Shown: piece by piece, positions 9,251 through 53,250 of the stretch
How positions within the stretch are numbered: the first letter of the stretch is position 1
Layout of the letters: the number at the start of each line of letters is the position of its first letter
Assembly (NCBI RefSeq): GCF_055900595.2
Contig: NZ_CM148325.1
DNA length: 64,000 nucleotides
Reading direction: 5' to 3' (one strand)
The notes under the pieces: model-generated
What the model was told of the DNA's origin: nothing
The model's database searches: none
The model's input: only the letters and a program-made list of their open reading frames with translations
Translations under genes and position numbers: made by a program

Positions 9251-9524
9251 TACCGTTGTCTCTCGTCCAGGTTTACTCCTGATAGAAAGTCATCGGCACT
9301 TGACGGTAATTACTTATGACCAAAAACCTCTTTGCGTCACATTTTTACAACAATTATGGCAGAGAAGAATAATGCCATTGGAATGAAGAGAGTAACGAAC
9401 GGCTAAACCGAATGACGAAAAATTCTGGAAAACAGCACGCAATTTCGTCAAGTGATTATTTTCGTCCCTAAGGAAACCTCATAGGATGCCTGCGGGTGCC
9501 TGAGACTTTCTGTTTTCAGGCTAA

Positions 9525-9581
9525 CCGGGAATCAGAAAGACGAAGGCCCCGACCGATATTTCTATCAACCGAGGCCAACGA

Positions 9582-9592
<11 letters not shown>
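9525..9592 (-). ncRNA. sokB: SokB antisense RNA of the hokB/mokB type I toxin-antitoxin locus (approximate extent)
   Basis: Minus-strand promoter-like TTGCCG-17 nt-TAACAT reading antisense across the mokB start; ends are approximate and unverified. Confidence 0.3.
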
Positions 9593-9789
<197 letters not shown>

Positions 9790-10204: not shown

Positions 10205-10269
10205 CTTCCGATGTAGGCCCGTATTCTTCGCCTGTACCACGGGTCGGTTTTAGTACAGGCGTTTTCTTT
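10205..10269 (+). ncRNA. rydC: RydC small regulatory RNA
   Basis: Approx. 65 nt: CTTCCGATGTAGGCCCGTATTCTTCGCCTGTACCACGGGTCGGTTTTAGTACAGGCG + TTTTCTTT, pseudoknot-capable hairpin plus U-tract, convergent on the cybB stop as in E. coli. Confidence 0.8.
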
Positions 10270-10997: not shown

Positions 10998-11999
10998 ATG
11001 AGTAAAGTTGGTATTAACGGTTTTGGTCGTATCGGTCGACTGGTGTTGCGTCGATTACTTGAAGTCAAAAGTAACATAGACATTGTCGCTATTAATGATC
11101 TCACTTCCCCAAAAATTCTCGCCTACCTGCTGAAACATGATTCAAACTACGGACCGTTCCCCTGGAGCGTTGATTTTACGGAAGATTCACTTATCGTTGA
11201 TGGAAAAAGTATCGCGGTTTACGCCGAAAAAGAGGCTAAAAATATTCCATGGAAAGCGAAAGGCGCAGAAATCATTGTCGAATGTACTGGCTTTTATACC
11301 TCCGCCGAGAAATCGCAGGCGCACCTTGATGCTGGTGCGAAGAAGGTGTTGATTTCCGCCCCTGCCGGTGAAATGAAAACCATCGTTTATAACGTCAATG
11401 ACGACACACTGGATAGCAACGACACCATTGTTTCCGTGGCGTCATGCACCACTAACTGTCTTGCACCGATGGCCAAAGCCTTGCACGACAGTTTCGGAAT
11501 AGAAGTCGGCACGATGACGACCATTCATGCCTATACTGGCACCCAGTCACTGGTGGATGGCCCGCGAGGTAAAGATCTACGCGCTTCACGTGCAGCGGCA
11601 GAAAATATCATTCCCCACACTACAGGCGCGGCAAAAGCCATTGGTCTGGTGATCCCAGAACTGAGCGGCAAACTGAAAGGTCATGCGCAACGCGTACCCG
11701 TGAAAACAGGTTCGGTGACTGAACTGGTGTCTATTCTTGGAAAAAAAGTGACTGCCGAAGAGGTGAACAACGCGCTTAAAAACGCGACAAACAATAACGA
11801 GTCATTTGGTTATACCGATGAAGAAATAGTCTCTTCTGATATCATTGGCAGCCATTTCGGGTCGGTGTTTGATGCCACGCAAACCGAAATTACCACCGTG
11901 GGCGATTTACAGCTGGTGAAAACGGTCGCCTGGTATGATAACGAATATGGCTTCGTCACGCAGCTTATTCGCACCCTCGAAAAATTCGCTAAACTCTGA
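10998..11999 (+). CDS. gapC: Glyceraldehyde-3-phosphate dehydrogenase C, intact reading frame
   Basis: 333 aa uninterrupted ORF with GAPDH hallmarks (NGFGRIGR Rossmann motif, catalytic [10 protein letters not shown]). Confidence 0.9.
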
Positions 12000-14863: not shown

Positions 14864-15358
14864 ATGGAAAAAATATTTCAACTTTTAGAAACCGCCTGGC
14901 CTGCCGTAAAAGCAACAGGACTTACAGGTTGCGTAACCGCTCCAGAAACTGAAGATAACCTTCTTTTATTTGAGGATAAATACGCGACACATATTCCAAA
15001 AGACTATCGGCAGTTATTATCTCATTTTGGCGCATGTCATTTTGCCGATCCTCAAATTTATACTTTGAATGATCTGGACAGATATTACCCTCTATTTTTT
15101 CAACAATGGGAAGAGTATAAAAAAGAATATCCATCATTGAACAACATTGATCCTTTTCCTGTTGGCAGTTTTGGCGACGGGAGTGTCGCTTTTCTTGACC
15201 GCAACAGCCTAAAAATTTATATTCTAATTCATGATTTTGGTATATTTACCGATGATGTTGGTGATTTCCCTTGTGAGTTATGCTTTGAAAATTTTGGTGA
15301 GTTAGTGGAAATGCAAGTTGAAATGATTCTTTATTTACAGCAATATCATGTATCATGA
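14864..15358 (+). CDS. SUKH / SMI1-KNR4 family protein (candidate orphan immunity protein of a polymorphic-toxin system)
   Basis: 164 aa; motifs IPKDYRQLLSHFGA and PFPVGSFGDGSVAFLDRNSLKIYILIHDFG resemble the SMI1/KNR4 fold; lies in an AT-rich insert between ydcF and hrpA. Confidence 0.55.
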   Translation: MEKIFQLLETAWPAVKATGLTGCVTAPETEDNLLLFEDKYATHIPKDYRQLLSHFGACHFADPQIYTLNDLDRYYPLFFQQWEEYKKEYPSLNNIDPFPVGSFGDGSVAFLDRNSLKIYILIHDFGIFTDDVGDFPCELCFENFGELVEMQVEMILYLQQYHVS

Positions 15359-28709: not shown

Positions 28710-31700
28710 TTAGAACGTTTTCTTGAAGTTCAGCATCACGCCTTTATCGCTGATACCATCCTCTTTCCAGTGGTAAGCATCCAGATTCAGCGAACTTTCT
28801 TTGCTGCTGTACTTCACGCCGACGCTTGCCAGACTGTTGATGCCGCCGCCCTTTTGCCCATCATCGACATTAAAGTGCTGGCTGCCTGCGCCTGCCAGGC
28901 TTGCCGTGCGCTGGCTCTTGCTGTAGCTGAGGTTCGGCCCACCTTCCAGCGCGGCGTTCGCACTCCAGCCGTCTTTGCCTGCGTAGTCCAGCTTCAGCCC
29001 AACGATGCTGTCCACCGCCGTTTCGCTGCCGCTGTTCATGCTCAGGTTAAAGTCTCCGGCATTGCGCTCCTGATAGTCGCCTTCCAGCATGTGACGCAGT
29101 TTCAGACCCGCATATGGCGTGATTTTCAGCCCTTCGCGCGGTTCAAAGGTTTTCGCCCCTTCGCTACGGAACTCCAGGTACTGTTGTTTCACATTCGTGT
29201 CTGCCGTCTTACTGATGTCGCCGTAAGCCACCGAACGGCTGCTGTCCAGTTGGTGAATATCGTAACGCAGCGCGTTATTCCAGCTCATACCGTTGTCAAA
29301 GGACATCTGATGCTTCAGGCCAAAGAACTGGCTGTAGCCGCCTGTAACACCATTATCACCCGCTTTCTGCGCACCGTCGCCGTCCAGACGGGCGATACCG
29401 TACTCCAGGCTCATGGTCTGGTTTTCGCTCAGGTCGAGGGTTTTACGCAGCGCCAGCATGTCGTACTCGGTATTGTTACCCAGCTCAGCACGCGGATCGC
29501 CTTTCGCCACCACGTTAAATGCCAGAGCGTTGCCCATCTTCGGTGCGGCGTCTGCCAGCATACTAAAGCGATTGCTTAACACACGCGCTTCGCGGAATAC
29601 CGTGGTCGCCTGGCTACCGCTAATTTGCTTAAGTGCGCTGTTCAGCTCTGCAGTGGTGCCGACGTTCAGACTGGTATACAGCTCATTGTTGGTGTAACCC
29701 GCATCCAGCGCTTTTGCCACGTCATTCACTGAGGCATCCGTCGCCACATCGGTGTAGGCTTTTTTGCTCATGGTCACGTCAACGTTGCCGCTGGCGTCGG
29801 TACTGCCTGTCGCCTGCCAGACAACAGATGTCGAAGTGATCGCTTGCGCATCGGTCAGGTTGCTGCCTTGCACCACATCATCAAAGCTGGCGGTTTTGTC
29901 CGCCGTTCCCGCCGCAAAAGCAGTGTTGATCTCCACGCCTTTCATACTGGCGTTATTGACCATCAGCTTACCAGCGCTACCATCGGCGTTCGTCCCCACC
30001 ACGTAACCATTGAGGTTGTTCATGCCATCGTTGCGGCTAACGGAAGAAGAATGACTGTCGTCGTATGGCGTAATGGTGGGTTCTTCCGGCGCGGTAAAGT
30101 CGACATAGTGTACTTCCGTACCGTCTCCCCCTTCACCACTGCCCTCCATCACCGTGCCAGATTGTTTAATTAATCCGGAACCATTCACGCTGTCGTCAAT
30201 ATAAACAGTGCCGTTGTTAACAATATGACCATTGCTCCCGAGCTTGCTGAAGGCATATGAATTGCTGGCATATATATTGATGGTGCCGTTATTCTCAATC
30301 ACCGCATCAGCCGTGGCATCGGACTCCAGTTGCATCCCTATCATGCCTGTCCTGCTGGTTCCTTGCGTGCCAACGTTTATGGTGCCGTTGTTGATCATTT
30401 TGGCTTTACCGTGCGCCGACATCGCCACATTACTATTTTTGTCGATATTAATAATGCCGTCGTTTATTGCCTTGCTGGCCGTGTTTGATGTCAGGATCTG
30501 CCCGTTGATGACGCCAGACTGGCCATTATAGAACGTATGCCCATCACCACCGGTGCTAATTCTCATGTCACCTTCAACTGTCCCCCAGTTATTAAAATGT
30601 CCTGTCCACAGCGCATTCGTCGCCACCGTTGCCACACCGCCTTCCAGATTGTTGAAGGTGCCACCTTTATCAACCGATGCGTTATGTACGGTACCAGCAT
30701 TATTGAAGGTAGAGGCTGCAGCAAAAGTTATTTTCTCTACTTTTCCACCGGCCTGATTATTCATTACGGCAGACCCGGAAGAACATTTCCAGGCATTCAC
30801 CGTTCCGGTGTTATAAAAACGGCTGGCCCACTGGTCAACCGTGTTGATGCTGCCTGAGTTGTGAATAATCGATCCTGCAACAGTCGTTCCGACTTGCCCG
30901 GTCACCATACCTTCGTTAGTGAACACTCCGCCATCCACAGAAACAGTTTTTGTCGTGCCGTGGTTGGTGTATTCCCCACCCGTTGCGATATCAACCTCAT
31001 TAATACTGCCCGTGGTTTCATTGACCAGATGACCAAAGTCAGCCACGGTGACAGGTCCCCCGGTGACCGTACCCGTGTTTGTTACCAGGGTTTCGGCGGT
31101 TGCCGTGATATCAGTAGTACCGCCATATGAAGACAGGTTAAGCGTTTCCCCGTCAGCCGTAATAATGTCACCATTTCTCCAGCTTAATGAAACAAACCCA
31201 TCAGTCGAGTTATAGGCGTTATTGTCCTGGCAAATACCAAAAGTACAGATGGTCCCGTAATTAACAATAGTCCCGCTGCCATCGTTATAGAACGCCTGCC
31301 CGTTTTCAGCATTAATATTGATGATGCCCGTCTGATCATTAATCGCAGTGGCACCATTGTAAACAGCCATGCCGACCAATTTATTTGGCCCCAGCGTATC
31401 ATCATCATTTTCATTTACTTCCAGATTTATAGTTCCCTGGTTAATAATAATGTTACCTGGCTTCATCGCAGCCATACCGGCACCGGAATTATAGAGTGTT
31501 ATTTCACCACCCTGCTGATTAATGGCGGTAGAATTAACGCTGGCACCAGAACTGTCTGTACCCACAGCCATCCCGACAGCATAATCTTTGGCGCTGTCAT
31601 GAGCGATATTGGACGCCAGACTGGAAGTATCGTTTTCATCAACCCATAATGCGTCAATGAAAATCTTACCCATATTGTCAATGGTTGAATTATTGGAGGC

Positions 31701-34202
31701 CAGCATGCCAACACTCCCCCGGCCGTACATTTGGATCTCACCGGCAGTATTATTTAAAGCGGTGCCATTGTTGCCTGCCGTCATCCCCGTCAGACTAATG
31801 ACTTGATTATTAAAAATTAAAGGGTCACTCAAACCTTGAGCGTTCAGACTATTGAAAATACGTCCCTGCGCGAGTACCTTACTGGTGATGGCACTGTTAT
31901 TAACAACTCGACCACCATAGACGCTCAAATACGCAGAACTAGCAGAGTCTGATGTATTCCCCTCTACGCCGTAGATAGAAATCGTTACGTTGTTATTATT
32001 TACAGCTAGCGACTCTTCACCAGTAGCCCTGGCAAAGCCAATATTACCCAGTTCTACATCACCATTATTTATCATCTGCGAACCGGAATTCACCAGTACA
32101 ACCTGTGATGTGTCACTATTATAATGATCAAATGTATTTATATCTTTTAGGATAAAAGTGGCGTTGCGGCCAAGTTCTAAATGGGCTCGGTTATTCAGTT
32201 GAATGATATCGCCTAATCCAAGCGGAAAAACACCACTGATTGTTGAATCCCCATTTAGATACAGAGTAGAGTGCCCATCGATTTTGATAACAGGCGTATC
32301 GCCATAACCATTACGTTTTAAAGCAGGTGTGGAGCCATCCTGTAGAGTATTTTCTTCGCCAGCTAAATGGATACCACCATTAATTTCGACGGTATTACCG
32401 TCACCCGACACAACCAGACCATTAATATTTTCCTGGCTGCCATCCATTTCATTATAGCTACGAGAAGTGACTTCACTGTCAGCAACAATGGTAAGATTGC
32501 CATTTAATACGATATTATTGTCGTGTCCCTGCACCTGAATGCCAACAGAAGGGGTAAAAAAGTCATTTATTGAATGCTCTCCGGCCTGATTTTTATCCAC
32601 CAGAATATTACCGGTAATTTCAACTTCATTGCCATCACCGGCTACATTTACCCCTGTCGCAACACTGCCAGTCACATTAAGCTCATTTGTCGCCAGCGTC
32701 ATGGCGTTATTATTTCCAGACACATCCAGACCGGTTGAATAATCCCCTACATCCACACGGCCAGCCAGAGAAATCAGACCATCATCTCCAACGACGCGAA
32801 TCCCGGTACTGAAATTATTAGCAATGATGTCCCCCACATTGATAAGAGTAGAATGATTACCCTCAATCAGAATCCCTGTCGCATTGGCCTCTGAACTACC
32901 ATTACTGACGGAAATATCCCCCCTGTTAATGAACGTCGACGCATCACCACTGAGAGAAACACCCAGCGAATTTTCATCCACGACCGTTATATTGCCTTTA
33001 TTGCTGACGATCGCGCCATTACCCTCAACATCAATACCCCGTGCAGCATTGCTAACGTATAAATCCCCTTCCTGTATAACCGTCGCATTATTACCAACGA
33101 TTTTGCTGCCCGTTGAATTTTGCCCATCAACCGTCATATGTCCTTTATTATCGGTCCTGACATCATTACCGCTAATAACGGCCCCTATTCCGCCGTTATT
33201 GACAGTGGAGTCGCCAGTGTTATTTAAGATTGTACGATCGCCATTGACGATAACCGCCGTGCCAGCATCGACCACCGTCTGACCGTTATTATTGATGGTT
33301 ATATTATCGCCGGTCAGGATACCGACCACCGAATCTTCACCGACAGCCTCTGTTTTACCCTCGTTTGTCAGCGCAATGTTGTTACCATTAATCATCATCA
33401 CCGTGCCGCCATTCAGGGCCGTGTTACCGCCCTGGTCAGTGATAATCGCATCATTAACGGTAATTATTCTGCCCGTTGTTCCATCAGACACGACACTGGC
33501 TAACTGTGTGACGTGGAGTTTACCTTCGTCATCGTAGCGCCATTCCATATCACCTGTGGTACTCACACCACTAAAGATGGCGGTATGAGTCTCTTCATGG
33601 TTTTCCCACTCTGTCACAATGGTTTTTCGGCCATCTTTTGCCGACAGCGTGTAGCTACCATCGACATTCTGTATATAGGTGAACGTTGCCCCGCGAATCT
33701 TCAGGGTTTGCGCGTCCTTGTCCCATGTCACATTGTTATCAAAGACAACGGGTTCTGTTCTCGGTAGGTCAACATCATCACCGCTATTGTCGGGTGGAAT
33801 AACATTACCGCCGTTATCTGGCTTTACAGGTATACCTGAATCTTCATCACTGGGAACGGGTAGCGGTAGAGGGCCATTATCATCTGGCGGTATGGGCTGG
33901 GGAAAAGAAGAGTGAGCAGAATGATCATTGTCATGAGACAATTCAATCACTGCGAGTGTTGCCAGTACCGCCGTGGCACCTAATGCCAGTAACGAGCTGA
34001 AACCATTATTTGTAACAACAGCACATTTTTCTGGCACTGTTTTCAACTTCGTTGACGGTCGGGCGTGCCCTTCTGACTGACATGTCATTTGAGAGCTTCT
34101 GCGCATACTGTCTGCACTCTCGCCTTCTGTTATTTCCGCCCCCCAGCTTTGGCCACTTAACGCTATAGCGATACACGCTGATAATAACGTTTTCTTTTGC
34201 AT
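28710..34202 (-). CDS. ydbA: YdbA autotransporter (type Va) with long beta-helical repetitive passenger and C-terminal beta-barrel, uninterrupted
   Basis: 1830 aa single ORF; signal peptide; Pro-rich linker; many degenerate ~20-aa Gly/Asn/Thr/Val-rich repeats (NNGTINV...-type); C-terminal barrel ending ...MLNFKKTF. Confidence 0.88.
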   Translation of the reverse strand: MQKKTLLSACIAIALSGQSWGAEITEGESADSMRRSSQMTCQSEGHARPSTKLKTVPEKCAVVTNNGFSSLLALGATAVLATLAVIELSHDNDHSAHSSFPQPIPPDDNGPLPLPVPSDEDSGIPVKPDNGGNVIPPDNSGDDVDLPRTEPVVFDNNVTWDKDAQTLKIRGATFTYIQNVDGSYTLSAKDGRKTIVTEWENHEETHTAIFSGVSTTGDMEWRYDDEGKLHVTQLASVVSDGTTGRIITVNDAIITDQGGNTALNGGTVMMINGNNIALTNEGKTEAVGEDSVVGILTGDNITINNNGQTVVDAGTAVIVNGDRTILNNTGDSTVNNGGIGAVISGNDVRTDNKGHMTVDGQNSTGSKIVGNNATVIQEGDLYVSNAARGIDVEGNGAIVSNKGNITVVDENSLGVSLSGDASTFINRGDISVSNGSSEANATGILIEGNHSTLINVGDIIANNFSTGIRVVGDDGLISLAGRVDVGDYSTGLDVSGNNNAMTLATNELNVTGSVATGVNVAGDGNEVEITGNILVDKNQAGEHSINDFFTPSVGIQVQGHDNNIVLNGNLTIVADSEVTSRSYNEMDGSQENINGLVVSGDGNTVEINGGIHLAGEENTLQDGSTPALKRNGYGDTPVIKIDGHSTLYLNGDSTISGVFPLGLGDIIQLNNRAHLELGRNATFILKDINTFDHYNSDTSQVVLVNSGSQMINNGDVELGNIGFARATGEESLAVNNNNVTISIYGVEGNTSDSASSAYLSVYGGRVVNNSAITSKVLAQGRIFNSLNAQGLSDPLIFNNQVISLTGMTAGNNGTALNNTAGEIQMYGRGSVGMLASNNSTIDNMGKIFIDALWVDENDTSSLASNIAHDSAKDYAVGMAVGTDSSGASVNSTAINQQGGEITLYNSGAGMAAMKPGNIIINQGTINLEVNENDDDTLGPNKLVGMAVYNGATAINDQTGIININAENGQAFYNDGSGTIVNYGTICTFGICQDNNAYNSTDGFVSLSWRNGDIITADGETLNLSSYGGTTDITATAETLVTNTGTVTGGPVTVADFGHLVNETTGSINEVDIATGGEYTNHGTTKTVSVDGGVFTNEGMVTGQVGTTVAGSIIHNSGSINTVDQWASRFYNTGTVNAWKCSSGSAVMNNQAGGKVEKITFAAASTFNNAGTVHNASVDKGGTFNNLEGGVATVATNALWTGHFNNWGTVEGDMRISTGGDGHTFYNGQSGVINGQILTSNTASKAINDGIINIDKNSNVAMSAHGKAKMINNGTINVGTQGTSRTGMIGMQLESDATADAVIENNGTINIYASNSYAFSKLGSNGHIVNNGTVYIDDSVNGSGLIKQSGTVMEGSGEGGDGTEVHYVDFTAPEEPTITPYDDSHSSSVSRNDGMNNLNGYVVGTNADGSAGKLMVNNASMKGVEINTAFAAGTADKTASFDDVVQGSNLTDAQAITSTSVVWQATGSTDASGNVDVTMSKKAYTDVATDASVNDVAKALDAGYTNNELYTSLNVGTTAELNSALKQISGSQATTVFREARVLSNRFSMLADAAPKMGNALAFNVVAKGDPRAELGNNTEYDMLALRKTLDLSENQTMSLEYGIARLDGDGAQKAGDNGVTGGYSQFFGLKHQMSFDNGMSWNNALRYDIHQLDSSRSVAYGDISKTADTNVKQQYLEFRSEGAKTFEPREGLKITPYAGLKLRHMLEGDYQERNAGDFNLSMNSGSETAVDSIVGLKLDYAGKDGWSANAALEGGPNLSYSKSQRTASLAGAGSQHFNVDDGQKGGGINSLASVGVKYSSKESSLNLDAYHWKEDGISDKGVMLNFKKTF

Positions 34203-40267: not shown

Positions 40268-43200
40268 ATGATTACTATTGACGGTAATGGCGCGGTTGCT
40301 TCGGTGGCGTTTCGCACCAGTGAAGTTATCGCCATCTACCCTATTACCCCCAGTTCCACGATGGCAGAACAGGCTGATGCATGGGCCGGAAACGGCTTGA
40401 AAAACGTTTGGGGAGACACACCACGCGTGGTTGAAATGCAGTCGGAAGCGGGTGCTATCGCTACCGTGCATGGTGCTTTGCAAACTGGCGCCCTCTCAAC
40501 ATCGTTTACGTCATCGCAGGGTTTGCTGCTGATGATCCCAACGCTGTACAAACTGGCAGGCGAACTGACGCCGTTTGTCCTGCATGTTGCGGCTCGTACC
40601 GTTGCCACACATGCACTCTCTATTTTTGGCGATCATTCCGACGTCATGGCAGTGCGCCAGACGGGTTGCGCGATGTTGTGTGCAGCAAACGTCCAGGAGG
40701 CGCAAGACTTTGCTCTCATTTCGCACATTGCGACGCTGAAAAGTCGCGTGCCATTTATTCATTTCTTTGATGGTTTCCGCACCTCCCACGAGATCAATAA
40801 AATTGTCCCGCTGGCCGATGACACTATTCTTGAACTGATGCCGCAGGCAGAAATTGATGCTCATCGCGCCCGTGCACTCAACCCGGAACATCCGGTGATC
40901 CGCGGTACGTCCGCCAATCCTGACACTTATTTCCAGTCTCGCGAAGCCACCAACCCATGGTACAACGCAGTCTATGACCATGTTGAACAGGCGATGAATG
41001 ATTTCGCTGCCGCGACAGGTCGCCAGTATCAGCCGTTTGAGTATTACGGGCATCCACAAGCGGAACGGGTGATTATCCTGATGGGCTCTGCCATTGGCAC
41101 CTGTGAAGAAGTGGTTGATGAATTGCTAACCCGTGGCGAAAAAGTCGGCGTGCTGAAAGTTCGCCTGTACCGTCCCTTCTCCGCCAAACACTTACTGCAA
41201 GCGTTGCCGGACTCTGTTCGGACAGTGGCGGTGCTGGATCGCACCAAAGAGCCAGGTGCGCAAGCGGAACCCCTGTACCTGGATGTGATGACCGCACTGG
41301 CAGAAGCCTTTAATAATGGCGAGCGTGAAACCCTGCCCCGTGTCATTGGTGGGCGCTATGGTCTTTCATCCAAAGAATTTGGCCCGGACTGTGTACTGGC
41401 GGTATTTGCCGAGCTCAACGCAGCTAAACCGAAAGCGCGCTTTACGGTTGGTATTTACGATGATGTGACCAATCTGTCACTGCCGTTGCCGGAAAACACC
41501 CTGCCAAATTCGGCGAAACTGGAAGCCTTGTTTTATGGCCTTGGTAGTGATGGCAGCGTTTCCGCGACCAAAAACAATATCAAGATTATCGGTAATTCCA
41601 CGCCGTGGTACGCACAGGGCTATTTTGTTTACGACTCCAAAAAGGCGGGCGGCCTGACGGTTTCTCACCTTCGCGTGAGCGAGCAGCCGATTCGTTCCGC
41701 TTATCTCATTTCCCAGGCTGATTTTGTTGGCTGCCACCAGTTGCAGTTTATCGATAAATATCAGATGGCTGAACGTTTGAAACCTGGCGGCATTTTCCTG
41801 CTCAACACGCCGTACAGCGCAGATGAAGTATGGTCGCGCTTGCCGCAGGAAGTTCAGGCCGTGTTAAACCAGAAAAAAGCGCGCTTCTATGTGATTAACG
41901 CGGCGAAAATCGCCCGTGAATGTGGCCTGGCGGCCCGAATTAATACCGTCATGCAGATGGCTTTTTTCCATCTGACGCAAATTCTGCCTGGCGACAGCGC
42001 CCTGGCCGAATTGCAGGGCGCGATTGCCAAAAGCTACAGCAGCAAAGGCCAGGATCTGGTGGAACGCAACTGGCAGGCTCTGGCACTGGCGCGTGAATCC
42101 GTAGAAGAAGTTCCGCTGCAGCCGGTTAATCCGCACAGCGCCAATCGACCGCCTGTGGTTTCCGATGCTGCTCCTGATTTCGTGAAAACCGTAACCGCGG
42201 CGATGCTCGCCGGGCTTGGTGATGCCCTCCCCGTTTCGGCGCTGCCGCCAGACGGCACCTGGCCGATGGGCACCACGCGCTGGGAAAAACGCAATATTGC
42301 CGAAGAGATCCCCATCTGGAAAGAGGAACTCTGTACCCAATGTAACCACTGCGTTGCCGCTTGCCCACACTCAGCTATTCGCGCCAAAGTGGTGCCGCCT
42401 GAAGCAATGGAAAATGCCCCTGCCAGCCTGCATTCGCTGGATGTAAAATCGCGTGATATGCGCGGGCAGAAATATGTCTTGCAGGTAGCTCCGGAAGATT
42501 GCACCGGCTGTAACCTGTGCGTCGAAGTTTGCCCGGCGAAAGACCGTCAGGATCCAGAGATTAAAGCCATCAATATGATGTCGCGCCTGGAACATGTCGA
42601 GGAAGAGAAAATCAATTACGACTTCTTCCTGAATTTACCAGAAATCGATCGCAGCAAACTGGAACGTATTGATATTCGTACATCGCAACTGATTACACCG
42701 CTGTTTGAATATTCAGGTGCTTGCTCTGGTTGTGGCGAGACGCCGTATATTAAATTGCTGACTCAGCTCTATGGCGATCGGATGTTGATCGCTAACGCTA
42801 CGGGTTGTTCTTCAATTTATGGTGGTAACCTGCCCTCCACACCATATACCACTGATGCCAACGGTCGTGGACCGGCATGGGCGAACTCGCTGTTTGAAGA
42901 TAACGCCGAATTTGGCCTTGGTTTCCGCCTGACGGTCGATCAACACCGTGTCCGCGTGCTGCGTCTGCTGGATCAATTTGCCGATAAAATCCCGGCGGAA
43001 TTACTGACTGCGTTGAAATCAGACGCCACGCCAGAGGTTCGTCGTGAACAGGTTGCAGCTTTACGTCAGCAACTCAACGATGTTGCCGAAGCACATGAAC
43101 TGCTACGTGATGCAGATGCACTGGTGGAAAAATCAATCTGGCTGATTGGTGGCGATGGCTGGGCTTACGATATTGGCTTTGGCGGTCTGGATCATGTATT

Positions 43201-43792
43201 GAGTTTGACGGAAAACGTCAACATTCTGGTGCTGGATACGCAATGCTATTCCAACACCGGTGGTCAGGCGTCGAAAGCGACACCGCTGGGTGCAGTAACT
43301 AAATTTGGCGAGCACGGCAAACGTAAAGCGCGTAAAGATCTTGGCGTCAGTATGATGATGTACGGTCATGTTTATGTGGCGCAAATTTCTCTCGGCGCGC
43401 AGCTCAACCAGACAGTGAAAGCGATTCAGGAAGCAGAAGCGTATCCGGGACCATCGCTGATCATCGCTTATAGCCCGTGTGAAGAGCATGGTTACGATCT
43501 GGCACTCAGTCACGACCAGATGCGCCAACTCACTGCCACCGGCTTCTGGCCGCTATATCGCTTCGATCCACGTCGAGCCGATGAAGGCAAACTGCCGCTG
43601 GCGCTGGATTCACGCCCGCCGTCAGAAGCACTGGAAGAAACGTTACTTCACGAGCAGCGTTTCCGTCGTCTGAATTCGCAGCAGCCAGAAGTGGCAGAAC
43701 AGTTATGGAAAGATGCCGCAGCTGATTTGCAAAAACGCTATGACTTCCTGGCACAAATGGCCGGAAAAGCGGAAAAAAGCAACACCGATTAA
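40268..43792 (+). CDS. ydbK: Pyruvate:flavodoxin/ferredoxin oxidoreductase (NifJ-like) YdbK
   Basis: 1174 aa; TPP-binding domain and two 4Fe-4S ferredoxin motifs (CTQCNHCVAACP, CTGCNLCVEVCP). Confidence 0.95.
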   Translation: MITIDGNGAVASVAFRTSEVIAIYPITPSSTMAEQADAWAGNGLKNVWGDTPRVVEMQSEAGAIATVHGALQTGALSTSFTSSQGLLLMIPTLYKLAGELTPFVLHVAARTVATHALSIFGDHSDVMAVRQTGCAMLCAANVQEAQDFALISHIATLKSRVPFIHFFDGFRTSHEINKIVPLADDTILELMPQAEIDAHRARALNPEHPVIRGTSANPDTYFQSREATNPWYNAVYDHVEQAMNDFAAATGRQYQPFEYYGHPQAERVIILMGSAIGTCEEVVDELLTRGEKVGVLKVRLYRPFSAKHLLQALPDSVRTVAVLDRTKEPGAQAEPLYLDVMTALAEAFNNGERETLPRVIGGRYGLSSKEFGPDCVLAVFAELNAAKPKARFTVGIYDDVTNLSLPLPENTLPNSAKLEALFYGLGSDGSVSATKNNIKIIGNSTPWYAQGYFVYDSKKAGGLTVSHLRVSEQPIRSAYLISQADFVGCHQLQFIDKYQMAERLKPGGIFLLNTPYSADEVWSRLPQEVQAVLNQKKARFYVINAAKIARECGLAARINTVMQMAFFHLTQILPGDSALAELQGAIAKSYSSKGQDLVERNWQALALARESVEEVPLQPVNPHSANRPPVVSDAAPDFVKTVTAAMLAGLGDALPVSALPPDGTWPMGTTRWEKRNIAEEIPIWKEELCTQCNHCVAACPHSAIRAKVVPPEAMENAPASLHSLDVKSRDMRGQKYVLQVAPEDCTGCNLCVEVCPAKDRQDPEIKAINMMSRLEHVEEEKINYDFFLNLPEIDRSKLERIDIRTSQLITPLFEYSGACSGCGETPYIKLLTQLYGDRMLIANATGCSSIYGGNLPSTPYTTDANGRGPAWANSLFEDNAEFGLGFRLTVDQHRVRVLRLLDQFADKIPAELLTALKSDATPEVRREQVAALRQQLNDVAEAHELLRDADALVEKSIWLIGGDGWAYDIGFGGLDHVLSLTENVNILVLDTQCYSNTGGQASKATPLGAVTKFGEHGKRKARKDLGVSMMMYGHVYVAQISLGAQLNQTVKAIQEAEAYPGPSLIIAYSPCEEHGYDLALSHDQMRQLTATGFWPLYRFDPRRADEGKLPLALDSRPPSEALEETLLHEQRFRRLNSQQPEVAEQLWKDAAADLQKRYDFLAQMAGKAEKSNTD

Positions 43793-43821
43793 ATGCTCTG
43801 GATAAGGATAATCCAATTCTA

Positions 43822-43930
43822 AAAAAAAGCCCGGACGACTGTTCGGGCTTGTCTTTTTATATGTTGGAAAATCAGTGGCAATGCAATGGCCCAACAGAAA
43901 ATAAAATCTGTGACAATAAAGGCATATAAC
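43822..43930 (-). ncRNA. micC: MicC small RNA (represses ompC)
   Basis: Minus-strand GTTATATGCCTTTATTGTCACAGATTTTATTTTCTGTTGGGCC...AGCCCGAACAGTCGTCCGGGCTTTTTTTT; divergent from ompN. Confidence 0.85.
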
Positions 43931-44157
43931 CCGCGCAGAATAACGTATAGCAAATTAAAAGTATAATTTTTATTTTGTATGTATTATCTTCGATACATTC
44001 ACCAGGCTTATTATCATTTCAGAGGAATTATTTGATTAAGGTTTTACTTAAGGCGTAACAAATGATATTTATCGGCTAACTGAACTTCTCCTTTAGGATG
44101 TTTTCACTCCCCGAAATGGGGATAAAAGGCAAATAAAATAACTAAAGGATTTATTCA

Positions 44158-45291
44158 ATGAAAAGCAAAGTACTGGCACTTTTAATTCCTGCCCTGCTCG
44201 CCGCAGGTGCTGCACATGCAGCCGAAGTTTATAATAAAGACGGCAACAAATTTGATCTGTATGGCAAAGTTGATGGCCTGCATTATTTTTCTGATAATTC
44301 AGCGAAAGATGGCGACCAGAGCTATGCGCGTCTGGGTTTTAAAGGCGAAACCCAAATTAACGATCAACTTACTGGCTACGGTCAATGGGAATACAATATT
44401 CAGGCAAACAACACTGAATCTTCAAAAAACCAGTCATGGACCCGTCTGGCATTTGCCGGACTGAAATTTGCAGATTACGGTTCTTTCGATTACGGACGTA
44501 ATTATGGCGTAATGTACGACATCGAAGGCTGGACCGATATGCTGCCTGAATTTGGCGGTGACTCTTATACCAATGCAGACAACTTTATGACTGGTCGTGC
44601 CAATGGCGTCGCGACTTATCGTAACACTGATTTCTTCGGTCTGGTAAATGGTCTGAACTTCGCGGTGCAGTATCAAGGTAACAACGAAGGAGCCAGTAAT
44701 GGTCAGGAAGGCACCAACAACGGACGTGATGTTCGCCATGAAAACGGTGACGGCTGGGGTCTTTCCACAACATATGATTTAGGCATGGGCTTTAGCGCTG
44801 GTGCGGCATACACCTCTTCTGACCGCACCAATGACCAGGTTAACCATACTGCGGCTGGTGGTGATAAAGCAGACGCGTGGACTGCTGGGCTAAAATACGA
44901 TGCTAACAATATTTACCTGGCAACCATGTATTCAGAAACGCGTAATATGACCCCGTTTGGCGACAGCGATTATGCTGTTGCAAACAAAACCCAGAACTTT
45001 GAAGTCACTGCACAGTACCAGTTTGATTTTGGTCTGCGTCCGGCAGTCTCTTTCCTGATGTCTAAAGGCCGTGACCTGCACGCTGCCGGTGGTGCAGACA
45101 ACCCGGCAGGTGTTGATGATAAAGATCTGGTAAAATACGCCGATGTTGGCGCGACTTACTATTTCAACAAAAATATGTCCACCTACGTTGACTATAAAAT
45201 CAACCTGTTGGATGAAGATGACAGCTTCTACGCTGCCAACGGCATCTCTACCGATGATATTGTCGCTTTAGGTCTGGTTTATCAGTTCTAA
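44158..45291 (+). CDS. ompN: Outer membrane porin OmpN
   Basis: 377 aa general porin (OmpC/F family) with signal peptide and C-terminal ...LVYQF. Confidence 0.93.
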
Positions 45292-45299
45292 ATCCTCCT

Positions 45300-45324
45300 G
45301 CCCGCTGTTATGGCGGGCTTTTTC
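45300..45324 (+). terminator. Intrinsic terminator of ompN
   Basis: GCCCGC-tgttatg-GCGGGC followed by TTTTT. Confidence 0.75.
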
Positions 45325-45350
45325 TGCTTATTCTTCCTCCTTTGATCTAA

Positions 45351-45866
<516 letters not shown>

Positions 45867-45873
45867 CACTAAC

Positions 45874-45898
45874 GCCCGCACATTGCTGCGGGCTTTTT
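45874..45898 (+). terminator. Intrinsic terminator of uspF
   Basis: GCCCGCA-cattgc-TGCGGGC followed by TTTTT. Confidence 0.75.
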
Positions 45899-46041
45899 GA
45901 TTCATTTCGCAAATGTGCTGACATTTTCCCCTCTAATCCGTACCATACACGCCACAGTTTTTATATCAGATTTCTTATGCTGGGCGTTCCGGCATGACGC
46001 ATACTCTTCTGATGCCATATAACGAATTGAGTCGCTTTTAA

Positions 46042-46977
46042 ATGTCGCAAAATCAAGAAATTAGTAAGAAAGAACAATACAACCTGAACAAATTACAAAA
46101 ACGTCTGCGTCGTAACGTGGGCGAAGCCATTGCTGACTTCAATATGATTGAAGAAGGCGATCGCATCATGGTTTGCCTCTCCGGGGGTAAAGACAGCTAT
46201 ACCATGCTGGAGATTCTGCGCAATTTGCAGCAAAGCGCTCCAATCAATTTTTCGCTGGTGGCTGTTAACCTCGATCAAAAGCAACCGGGCTTCCCGGAAC
46301 ACGTTCTGCCCGAGTATCTTGAAAAGCTGGGCATTGAGTACAAGATTGTGGAAGAGAACACTTACGGTATCGTGAAAGAGAAGATTCCGGAGGGCAAAAC
46401 CACTTGCTCACTGTGTTCTCGTCTTCGTCGCGGAATTCTTTACCGTACCGCAACGGAACTGGGAGCGACGAAGATCGCGCTGGGTCACCATCGTGACGAT
46501 ATCCTGCAAACGCTGTTCTTAAATATGTTCTATGGCGGCAAGATGAAAGGTATGCCACCGAAACTGATGAGCGATGATGGCAAACATATTGTGATTCGTC
46601 CGCTGGCCTACTGTCGCGAGAAAGATATTCAACGCTTTGCCGATGCAAAAGCGTTCCCGATTATTCCGTGCAACCTGTGCGGTTCACAGCCTAACCTGCA
46701 ACGTCAGGTGATTGCTGACATGTTGCGTGACTGGGATAAACGTTATCCGGGGCGTATCGAGACGATGTTCAGCGCGATGCAGAATGTGGTGCCGTCGCAT
46801 CTGTGCGATACCAACCTGTTCGATTTCAAAGGCATTACCCACGGTTCTGAAGTGGTTAACGGGGGTGATCTGGCGTTTGATCGCGAAGAGATCCCTCTAC
46901 AACCGGCGGGTTGGCAGCCTGAAGAAGATGAAAATCAGTTGGATGAGTTACGACTGAATGTGGTTGAAGTGAAATAA
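46042..46977 (+). CDS. ttcA: tRNA 2-thiocytidine(32) synthetase TtcA
   Basis: 311 aa, PP-loop SGGKDS and CxxC Fe-S motifs. Confidence 0.93.
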
Positions 46978-47024
46978 CCCGGATAGCGCCCGATGCGCAA
47001 GCTTATCGGGCTACTCTTATGGAG

Positions 47025-47057
47025 GCCGGATAAGACGCGGCCAGCGTCGCATCCGGC
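47025..47057. repeat. REP element downstream of ttcA/dbpA
   Basis: GCCGGATAAGACGCGGCCAGCGTCGCATCCGGC palindromic unit. Confidence 0.65.
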
Positions 47058-47105
47058 AATCCCGAAGAAGATGTTTACTCTTGCACCCTGCGATTCAACA
47101 TTTCA

Positions 47106-48479
47106 TTATTTTAATAACCGCACCCGGCACGTTTTTCCTTTAATCTTCCCGCCCTGTAACTGTTTCCATGCTTTATGAGCAACAGCCTGACGCACCGCAA
47201 CATAGACATGCGCCGGATGCACGGCGATTTTGCCAATATCTGCGCCATCAAGCCCGATATCTCCTGTCAGCGCACCTAATACATCACCCGGGCGCATTTT
47301 GGCTTTTTTCCCGCCATCGATACACAACGTTGCCATTTCTGCTTCCAGCGGCACAATGGAACTATTAACTGGCGGCGTTTGCCAGTTAAGTTTTATCTGC
47401 AACATGTCAGAAATGATATTGGCCCGCTGTGCTTCTTCCGGGGCACAGAAACTGATCGCCAGACCGCTATTTCCTGCACGCGCTGTACGACCGATGCGAT
47501 GTACATGAACTTCAGGATCCCACGCCAGTTCAAAGTTCACTACCAGCTCAAGCGATTTAATATCAAGACCACGCGCAGCAACATCCGTCGCGACCAGCAC
47601 ACGAGCGCTACCGTTAGCAAAACGTACCAGGGTCTGATCGCGGTCACGTTGCTCCAGATCGCCATGTAACGACAATGCACTTTGCCCTATGTCATTCAGC
47701 GCGTCGCAGACAGCCTGACAATCTTTTTTGGTATTGCAAAACACCACGCAAGAGGATGGCTGATGCAAACTTAATAACCGTTGCAACAGCGGAATTTTGC
47801 CTTTGCTGGATGTCTCATAAAATTGTTGTTCAATGGGAGGCAGAGCATCTGTTGAGTCAATTTCAATCGCCAATGGATCGCGTTGAACTCGTCCGCTGAT
47901 TGCGGTGATGGCTTCCGGCCAGGTTGCCGAAAACAGAAGCGTCTGTCGAGATGCTGGCGCAAAACGGATAACATCATCAATGGCATCGCTAAATCCCATA
48001 TCCAGCATGCGATCGGCTTCATCCATCACCAGCATATTCAACGCATCCAGTGATACCGTGCCTTTTTGCAGATGGTCCAGCAAACGACCTGGGGTTGCCA
48101 CGATAATATGCGGCGCATGTTGCAACGAATCACGCTGCATACCGAACGGTTGACCACCGCACAAAGTCAAAATTTTGGTATTTGGCAGAAAACGCGCCAG
48201 CCGACGCAATTCACCTGCCACCTGATCCGCCAGTTCACGCGTAGGACACAGCACTAAAGCCTGGGTCTGAAATAGCGACGCATCAATTTTCTGTAGCAGC
48301 CCGAGGCCAAAAGCCGCCGTTTTGCCGCTGCCGGTTTTCGCCTGCACGCGAACATCTTTTCCGGCAAGGATCGCCGGAAGCGCGGCGGCCTGCACCGGCG
48401 TCATAGTTAAATAACCCAACTCATTAAGGTTCGTGAGTTGGGCGGGAGGCAAAACATTCAGGGTAGAAAAAGCGGTCAC
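47106..48479 (-). CDS. dbpA: ATP-dependent RNA helicase DbpA (DEAD-box, 23S rRNA-specific)
   Basis: 457 aa; Q-motif, Walker A AKTGSGKT, DEAD box, C-terminal RNA-binding domain. Confidence 0.95.
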   Translation of the reverse strand: MTAFSTLNVLPPAQLTNLNELGYLTMTPVQAAALPAILAGKDVRVQAKTGSGKTAAFGLGLLQKIDASLFQTQALVLCPTRELADQVAGELRRLARFLPNTKILTLCGGQPFGMQRDSLQHAPHIIVATPGRLLDHLQKGTVSLDALNMLVMDEADRMLDMGFSDAIDDVIRFAPASRQTLLFSATWPEAITAISGRVQRDPLAIEIDSTDALPPIEQQFYETSSKGKIPLLQRLLSLHQPSSCVVFCNTKKDCQAVCDALNDIGQSALSLHGDLEQRDRDQTLVRFANGSARVLVATDVAARGLDIKSLELVVNFELAWDPEVHVHRIGRTARAGNSGLAISFCAPEEAQRANIISDMLQIKLNWQTPPVNSSIVPLEAEMATLCIDGGKKAKMRPGDVLGALTGDIGLDGADIGKIAVHPAHVYVAVRQAVAHKAWKQLQGGKIKGKTCRVRLLK

Positions 48480-48736: not shown

Positions 48737-48862
48737 AGGCAAAAAAAAGCCGACTCATCAAAGTCGGCGTCGTACGAATCAATTGTGCTATGCAGTAATT
48801 CAAAAAAGGAAGTAAGACAATATGGAGCGCAACGCCCATCGCTTGACGTTGCATTCACCTGC
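48737..48862 (-). ncRNA. fnrS: FnrS small RNA (FNR-activated anaerobic regulator)
   Basis: Minus-strand GCAGGTGAATGCAACGTCAAGCGATGGGCGTTGCGCTCCATATTGTCTTACTTCC...GCCGACTTTGATGAGTCGGCTTTTTTTT with intrinsic terminator. Confidence 0.88.
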
Positions 48863-52239: not shown

Positions 52240-52334
52240 ACCGGCGCAGAGGAGACCATGCCGGATTTAAGACGCGGATGCACTGCTGTGTGTACTGTAG
52301 AGTCTGGCGGATGTCGACAGACTCTATTTTTTTA
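52240..52334 (+). ncRNA. mcaS: McaS (IsrA) small RNA
   Basis: ACCGGCGCAGAGGAGACCATGCCGGATTTAAGACGCGGATGCACTGCTGTGTGTACTGTAGAGTCTGGCGGATGTCGACAGACTCTATTTTTTTAT with terminator hairpin and U-tract, between smrA and abgR. Confidence 0.85.
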
Positions 52335-52341
52335 TGCAGTT

Positions 52342-53250
52342 TTAACTTTGCAGATAGCCGCATTCTCGCCGAAATTGCGTGATTAATGACGCGGTCAGTG
52401 GTGTCTGGCGACTATCACGCCGCTGAATCAAATAATAGGCCGCTTTCGGTAAAATTTCGCTAACCGGCAACATCACCAGCCCCTGTCCGTGCAAGGGATC
52501 GCAGCCCATTTCTTCAGGTAGTATGCTGAGAAAATCGCTTTTTGCCACCAGACTGATACAGGCTGAAAACGTCTCGCAGACTACGCCGACCTGTGGCGTT
52601 TGCGCCTGATCGTCAAGCAATTCACTCAACTGTTTGTAGTAGCTGCCGTGTGGCGTCGGCATTGTCCAGCTGTAGTCCAGTAACTGTTTGATCGAACGGG
52701 CACCAATGGCGGGATGTCCCGGGCGGCAAAAGATCGCGAATTGCTTTTCCAGTAATTTCTCAAAAGTAAATTCGTGGTCGTAGGGTCCCTGATAATAGGT
52801 ATTGATGGTGAAATCCAGTTCTCCCTGTCGCAATTCATTAATCATCGACACCAGTTGCCCTTCCATAATGCGTACTTTTACCTGCGGATGCTGCTGATGA
52901 AAACGAGATATGACAGCTGGCATCAGACTGCGGGAAATACTGGCCCCCATGCCGATATTAATTTGCCCTGCCAGTTGCCCTTGTCGTTGGCGAATATCCT
53001 CTTGCGCTGCGCGCAGCTCTTCAAGAATAAGACTGGCGTGCTGATAAAAACTTTCACCGGCATCAGTTAACGTCACGCCTTTACTACGGCGAAAAAAGAG
53101 TTGCGCCGCTAACCCTTCTTCCAGCTCCTGAATAGATTTACTCAGTGCCGGTTGCGACATATTCAACATGCGGCTCGCTCCGCGAATGCTGCCCTGACGA
53201 GCCACTTCAACAAAAGCCCGAATTTGATGAATTTTTACCTGAAAAGCCAT
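52342..53250 (-). CDS. abgR: LysR-family regulator AbgR
   Basis: 302 aa, N-terminal HTH, divergent from abgABT. Confidence 0.92.
   Translation of the reverse strand: MAFQVKIHQIRAFVEVARQGSIRGASRMLNMSQPALSKSIQELEEGLAAQLFFRRSKGVTLTDAGESFYQHASLILEELRAAQEDIRQRQGQLAGQINIGMGASISRSLMPAVISRFHQQHPQVKVRIMEGQLVSMINELRQGELDFTINTYYQGPYDHEFTFEKLLEKQFAIFCRPGHPAIGARSIKQLLDYSWTMPTPHGSYYKQLSELLDDQAQTPQVGVVCETFSACISLVAKSDFLSILPEEMGCDPLHGQGLVMLPVSEILPKAAYYLIQRRDSRQTPLTASLITQFRRECGYLQS

Follow-up and report, generated by a model that had tools for sequence, protein, structure and literature searches.

An apparently native, unoccupied Rac-type prophage attachment site inside the 5′ end of ttcA

The e14 element and phage 21 integrate in the end of icd and supply a substitute end; with an attP that carries such a look-alike, the target gene is functional after integration. 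By analogy, Rac-type phages appear to share this logic, their attP carrying a look-alike of one end of the target gene. They replace the 5′ end of ttcA, whereas e14 and phage 21 replace the 3′ end of icd, and because it is the 5′ end of the gene that is replaced, Rac-type integration would also replace the ttcA promoter region. Previous work has (i) located attL within the ttcA coding region, (ii) shown experimentally that four N-terminal residues of TtcA change on Rac excision, (iii) recognized CP-933R (EDL933) and Sp10 (Sakai) as Rac-like prophages at ttcA and (iv) described an ‘ancient’ variant, TtcA′, carried by strains that lack a Rac-like prophage (Liu et al. 2015, PMC4632033); this pattern was described from 27 strains. 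An empty Rac site in Escherichia coli is a common and published state.

In E. coli K-12 MG1655 the gene order is dbpA, ttcA, the cryptic prophage Rac, ttcC (a 51-bp pseudogene), uspF, ompN and ydbK. Rac is annotated at 1411899..1434958 (23,060 bp, from intR and xisR to ynaE and ynaM) and parts ttcA from ttcC, uspF and ompN. An earlier, sequence-only reading of the DNA analysed here had placed Rac next to the 5′ end of ttcA in K-12. The prophage does separate ttcA from the uspF/ompN side, but it interrupts the coding sequence of the gene near its 5′ end, its annotated start being 50 bp within the ttcA ORF. The first 17 native codons of ttcA, displaced in this way, persist in K-12 as the ttcC pseudogene beside uspF.

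The window (the whole 64,000-nucleotide stretch that was analysed, from contig NZ_CM148325.1 of assembly GCF_055900595.2) contains ydbK/nifJ (40268-43792), ompN (44158-45291), uspF and ttcA, followed by dbpA on the opposite strand. The uspF coding sequence (45432-45866, + strand; the annotated-type ATG at 45432 was taken as the start, and the stop codon ends at 45866) codes for universal stress protein F, 144 amino acids long, 99.3% identical to K-12 UspF across 144 aa (tblastn) and matching Pfam Usp (E = 3.6e-31); the near-identical genome NZ_CP098223.1 carries a uspF annotation at the same gene. The ttcA coding sequence (46042-46977, + strand; ATG at 46042) codes for the 311-amino acid tRNA 2-thiocytidine(32) synthetase, which belongs to the Pfam PP-loop family by its match and aligns with K-12 TtcA from end to end at 98.1% identity (tblastn). 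The ORFs and the tblastn alignments therefore bear out the coordinates read from the sequence, including the 175-bp gap between the two genes (45867-46041), and the TtcA N-terminus proved complete, as had been claimed, and of the native form.

The K-12 flanks of Rac are colinear with window positions 53991-46049 and 46091-39052, at ∼97.4% identity, and they come together there, overlapping by 43 bp (46049-46091), without any DNA between them. In these alignments the bacterial sequence is continuous on both sides of the attachment core, the uspF-side arm joining the ttcA-side arm directly. Neither the whole 23-kb Rac interior (blastn) nor any of 16 Rac proteins, IntR and XisR among them (tblastn), found a match in the 64-kb window. 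A Rac-like integrase, for which a search had been advised, was likewise absent from the 64-kb window, and neither intR, xisR, recET nor any other Rac gene adjoins ttcA there. Since the K-12 flanks meet directly and neither Rac DNA nor Rac protein has a match in the window, Rac is absent and the site is empty, as the sequence-only reading had proposed.

We consider, with a probability of roughly 0.93, that the native attB of Rac-type lambdoid prophages is present and unoccupied in the window, and that its place is within the 5′-terminal part of ttcA (core at 46066-46091) and not in the gap upstream of the gene. Rac-type phages encode IntR, a tyrosine integrase that has an arm-binding domain, and the excisionase XisR; in their attP the same 26-bp core follows a surrogate start codon for ttcA and eight codons that resemble the native ones. 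Upon integration the phage copy would substitute the first codons of ttcA and its entire upstream control region; because those first codons are replaced, ttcA would stay intact but with four residues changed (MQENQQIT for MSQNQEIS), and the native 5′ end would be left stranded beside uspF as the ttcC stub. In the window, integration has either never taken place or been exactly reversed, and ttcA retains its own start and its own 175-bp upstream region, in which the uspF terminator lies and, presumably, the native promoter as well.

The protein ends agree with this scheme. TtcA of the window starts MSQNQEIS and that of K-12 MQENQQIT, with differences at residues 2, 3, 6 and 8, and residues 1-17 of the window protein are what the ttcC stub of K-12 encodes. 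Ahead of the core, the ttcA-side junction has on its phage side an imitation of the gene, ATGCAAGAAAATCAACAAATTACA where the native sequence reads ATGTCGCAAAATCAAGAAATTAGT, with the result that the two proteins start differently. MQENQQIT is phage-supplied and MSQNQEIS is native, kept in K-12 as ttcC; both the N-terminus of K-12 TtcA and the region upstream of its gene are phage-derived. The N-terminus found in the window is the native one, in agreement with the published description of ‘ancient’ TtcA′ (PMC4632033). The closest described counterpart is the ttcA′ allele of rac-deleted or excised K-12 (Liu et al. 2015, Sci Rep 5:16074, PMC4632033), which has the same uspF-ttcA locus, the same 26-bp core and the same MSQNQEIS start as the window, and whose attB spacer is the same apart from one base of a T run. 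It differs from the window in its flanking DNA (∼97.4% identity) and in its origin, since the empty state of the window is natural, in a wild lineage, and does not come from induced excision.

The occupancy of the site was analysed in the 5,410 complete E. coli genomes that gave a match. An empty, contiguous site like that of the window was present in 2,488 (46%), a 2.3-kb decayed remnant lay between uspF and ttcA in 1,044 (19%; for example Ecol_448) and the site was split in the remaining ∼1,880 (35%, a figure obtained by subtraction and only spot-checked). These genomes confirm the pattern of Liu et al. 2015: about half of E. coli is empty at this site, with the native TtcA N-terminus. In the split genomes sampled (K-12 derivatives, O111:H8), intR, xisR and recET adjoin ttcA; genomes with a Rac-like prophage are occupied in this way, the phage genes standing against a phage-type ttcA start, whereas the window is empty. 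Rac-SA53 (KU052037.1) and the Rac-like prophage of an O111:H8 strain have the same chromosomal target, and their uspF-side junction preserves the sequence that is intact in the window.

Ecol_448 and the 1,043 other complete genomes with a decayed remnant have the same flanking genes, uspF and ttcA, as the window. They differ in that only ∼72 bp of the native spacer is left downstream of uspF, in that 2.3 kb of degraded DNA, including part of an integrase, comes after it, and in that the ttcA start is of the phage type; the window shows none of these features. The Rac-like remnant of Ecol_448 (2.3 kb; L004 17669-19993, NZ_CP015076.1) is made up of a C-terminal integrase fragment, a fragment of DUF1627 and a frameshifted pseudogene for a metal ABC-transporter permease, after which comes the phage-type ttcA start. 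CFT073 was described as an ‘exception’ with a phage-type TtcA in spite of lacking a Rac-like prophage (Liu et al. 2015, PMC4632033), and a decayed remnant of this kind may explain it. In the rare variant represented by CAVP776 (NZ_CM176338.1, L007 6001-6828), uspF and the native ttcA start have an IS1 after them, and ttcA has given way to unrelated genes, for an MFS transporter and for a gamma-glutamylcyclotransferase. This arrangement suggests an IS1-mediated rearrangement. CAVP776 was also considered as a second attachment site and was rejected as such; its match ends at window position 46054, the cause being the IS1-associated rearrangement.

These distributions bear on the alternative that survives best, namely that a Rac-like prophage was once present and later underwent precise IntR/XisR excision, the empty state being secondary rather than ancestral. 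Rac excision is known and restores exactly the sequence of the window (PMC4632033), and since phage-type sequence occupies the site in ∼54% of the complete E. coli genomes, it is evidently one that is often used. On the other hand, a precise excision leaves no scar and so offers no positive evidence of itself, and the site is empty in 30 out of the 30 closest genomes among the matches listed (at least 99.1% identity over 1.9 kb), for which a prophage-free lineage is the simplest reading. A past occupation followed by excision therefore seems to us unlikely, although a site never occupied and one precisely vacated would look alike when judged from sequence alone.

The reading we prefer, a native attB within ttcA, rests for its position on the K-12 junctions. 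A three-way alignment revealed a perfect 26-bp block, AAGAAAGAACAATACAACCTGAACAA, common to the window and to both K-12 junctions with 0 mismatches. It occurs once in the window (46066-46091) and twice in the K-12 locus (L001 7900-7925 and 30960-30985), where the copies sit exactly at the annotated ends of Rac (chance expectation, 0). The unoccupied core corresponds to ttcA codons 9-17 and, because it starts 25 bp downstream of the start codon, inside the coding sequence, it lies beyond the interval 45867-46041 that had been flagged. It is preceded at 46049-46065 by imperfect att homology, comprising native ttcA codons 3-8, where the phage copy has 4 mismatches in 17 nt and the flank alignments overlap. 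The alignment to the K-12 attL/attR core that the first reading had called for thus did find an empty attB, but inside ttcA; the prediction that attB would be contained in 45867-46041 was wrong, even the imperfect homology starting only at ∼46049. The main value of this result is a correct annotation, the Rac-type attB of the source genome being placed precisely, inside ttcA at 46066-46091. The idea that attB is intergenic after all (within 45867-46041), with Rac integrating beside ttcA rather than within it, has general proximity in its favour, the attR junction of K-12 keeping the whole spacer beside uspF. However, the sequence common to both K-12 junctions starts no earlier than ∼46049, with its perfect core at 46066-46091, the spacer is found at the uspF-side junction only and is missing from the ttcA-side junction, and both the K-12 annotation and Liu et al. 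(PMC4632033) put attL within ttcA; this idea, refuted by the junction alignments, is in our opinion very improbable.

The position of strand exchange can be narrowed further. In Rac-SA53 the junctions are uninterruptedly identical only across a 15-bp segment, ATACAACCTGAACAA, corresponding to window positions 46077-46091, and for this reason we infer that the exchange most likely occurs within 46077-46091. The right edge of this segment is the bacterial/phage boundary in K-12. In the sequence record of Rac-SA53 (KU052037.1), attP and attB are the names given to the corresponding 26 bp at the two junctions. IntR matches Pfam Arm-DNA-bind_2 and Phage_integrase; this pairing of an arm-type DNA-binding domain with the catalytic domain of a tyrosine recombinase fits a lambda-like mechanism. 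A K-12 Rac attP reconstructed in silico (626 nt) was also searched against a phage collection, in which no record spans at least 80% of the 626-nt attP. Most matches were to prophage-derived records that start at the integrase or include host flank, and Salmonella phage SPF_0923 alone spans the core contiguously, extending 17 nt towards the integrase and 153 nt in the other direction. Because SPF_0923 is the only record of the collection to do so, the confirmation of attP from a free phage is partial.

The flagged interval itself is the native uspF-ttcA intergenic spacer (45867-46041), with no foreign DNA. From 45867 to 46091 the window differs from the K-12 uspF-ttcC interval in a single respect, a run of five T residues in place of six. 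That the site is not truly empty but contains what is left of a decayed prophage, the situation of many B2-type strains, is scarcely credible, for although the 2.3-kb remnant state exists and is common (1,044 out of 5,410 genomes), the gap in the window is 175 bp long and one base away from the native K-12 spacer, the ttcA start is of the native type and there is no IntR homology in the window, so that a remnant, with its integrase fragment and phage-type ttcA start, is refuted.

With no prophage remnant in 45867-46041, the unoccupied site is preceded by an ordinary native ttcA upstream region. Downstream of uspF a terminator scan identified an intrinsic terminator (45874-45898, + strand), a GC-rich hairpin (45874-45893; 7 pairs, 6 of them G-C) followed by TTTTT, with a fold of −14.1 kcal/mol (z = −2.4). 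The spacer probably also holds the native ttcA promoter. A weak sigma-70-like site at 45918-45946 (+ strand; CTGACA-17-TACCAT) is a candidate by virtue of its position upstream of ttcA; it matches 9 out of 12 consensus positions, and the 2 sites found compare with 1.6 expected in shuffled sequences, which is chance level. No Rfam family was detected in 45867-46041, either in a permissive scan of 44000-48000 (E ≤ 1) or in a scan of the whole window at gathering thresholds. Two small ORFs (45842-45997 and 45897-46022) are mechanical calls without support and were discarded.

It is conceivable, and we propose it only tentatively, that integration swaps the 5′ control region of ttcA together with the four residues. 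Empty strains would then use the native promoter of the spacer and occupied strains, K-12 included, phage DNA downstream of intR, the native promoter being left with nothing but the ttcC stub. Were this the case, the regulation of ttcA, and hence the level of tRNA 2-thiocytidine, could differ systematically between the ∼46% of genomes with an empty site and the ∼54% of phage type. The site of the window may still accept a phage, and in practice it could serve as a defined, naturally vacant target for IntR-based integration or for prophage-typing PCR.

Several further features were observed in the window. Between ttcA and dbpA there is a REP-like palindrome (47024-47062), the only Rfam match near the flagged interval, scored as naRNA4 on the two strands (29 and 25 bits) below the gathering threshold of 59.5. 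Matches above the Rfam gathering thresholds were obtained for MicC (43813-43933, − strand), FnrS (48745-48862, − strand), McaS (52240-52335, + strand), sok (9494-9645, + strand, next to hokB) and RydC (10205-10268, + strand), all of which are where expected from K-12. The closest complete genome, NZ_CP098223.1, is 99.95% identical over 38.7 kb; it carries IS150 and an IS200/IS605 tnpA, both absent from the window (window 9567-9569 and 2812-2817; L003 18562-20006 and 26763-27469), and its abgR has an internal stop, whereas abgR is intact in the window (52342-53250). An intact autotransporter ORF of 1,830 amino acids (28710-34202, − strand) lies between pdxI and ydbL; we take its K-12 counterpart to be ydbA, disrupted by IS elements. 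At the gapC position there is an intact gene for a type I glyceraldehyde-3-phosphate dehydrogenase of 333 amino acids (10998-11999, + strand), gapC being presumably a pseudogene in K-12. Finally, downstream of hrpA, an ORF of the SMI1/KNR4 family (14864-15358, + strand, 164 aa) might be an orphan immunity-type gene; in the closest genome its neighbours are a fragment of a gene and a small gene of hypothetical product.
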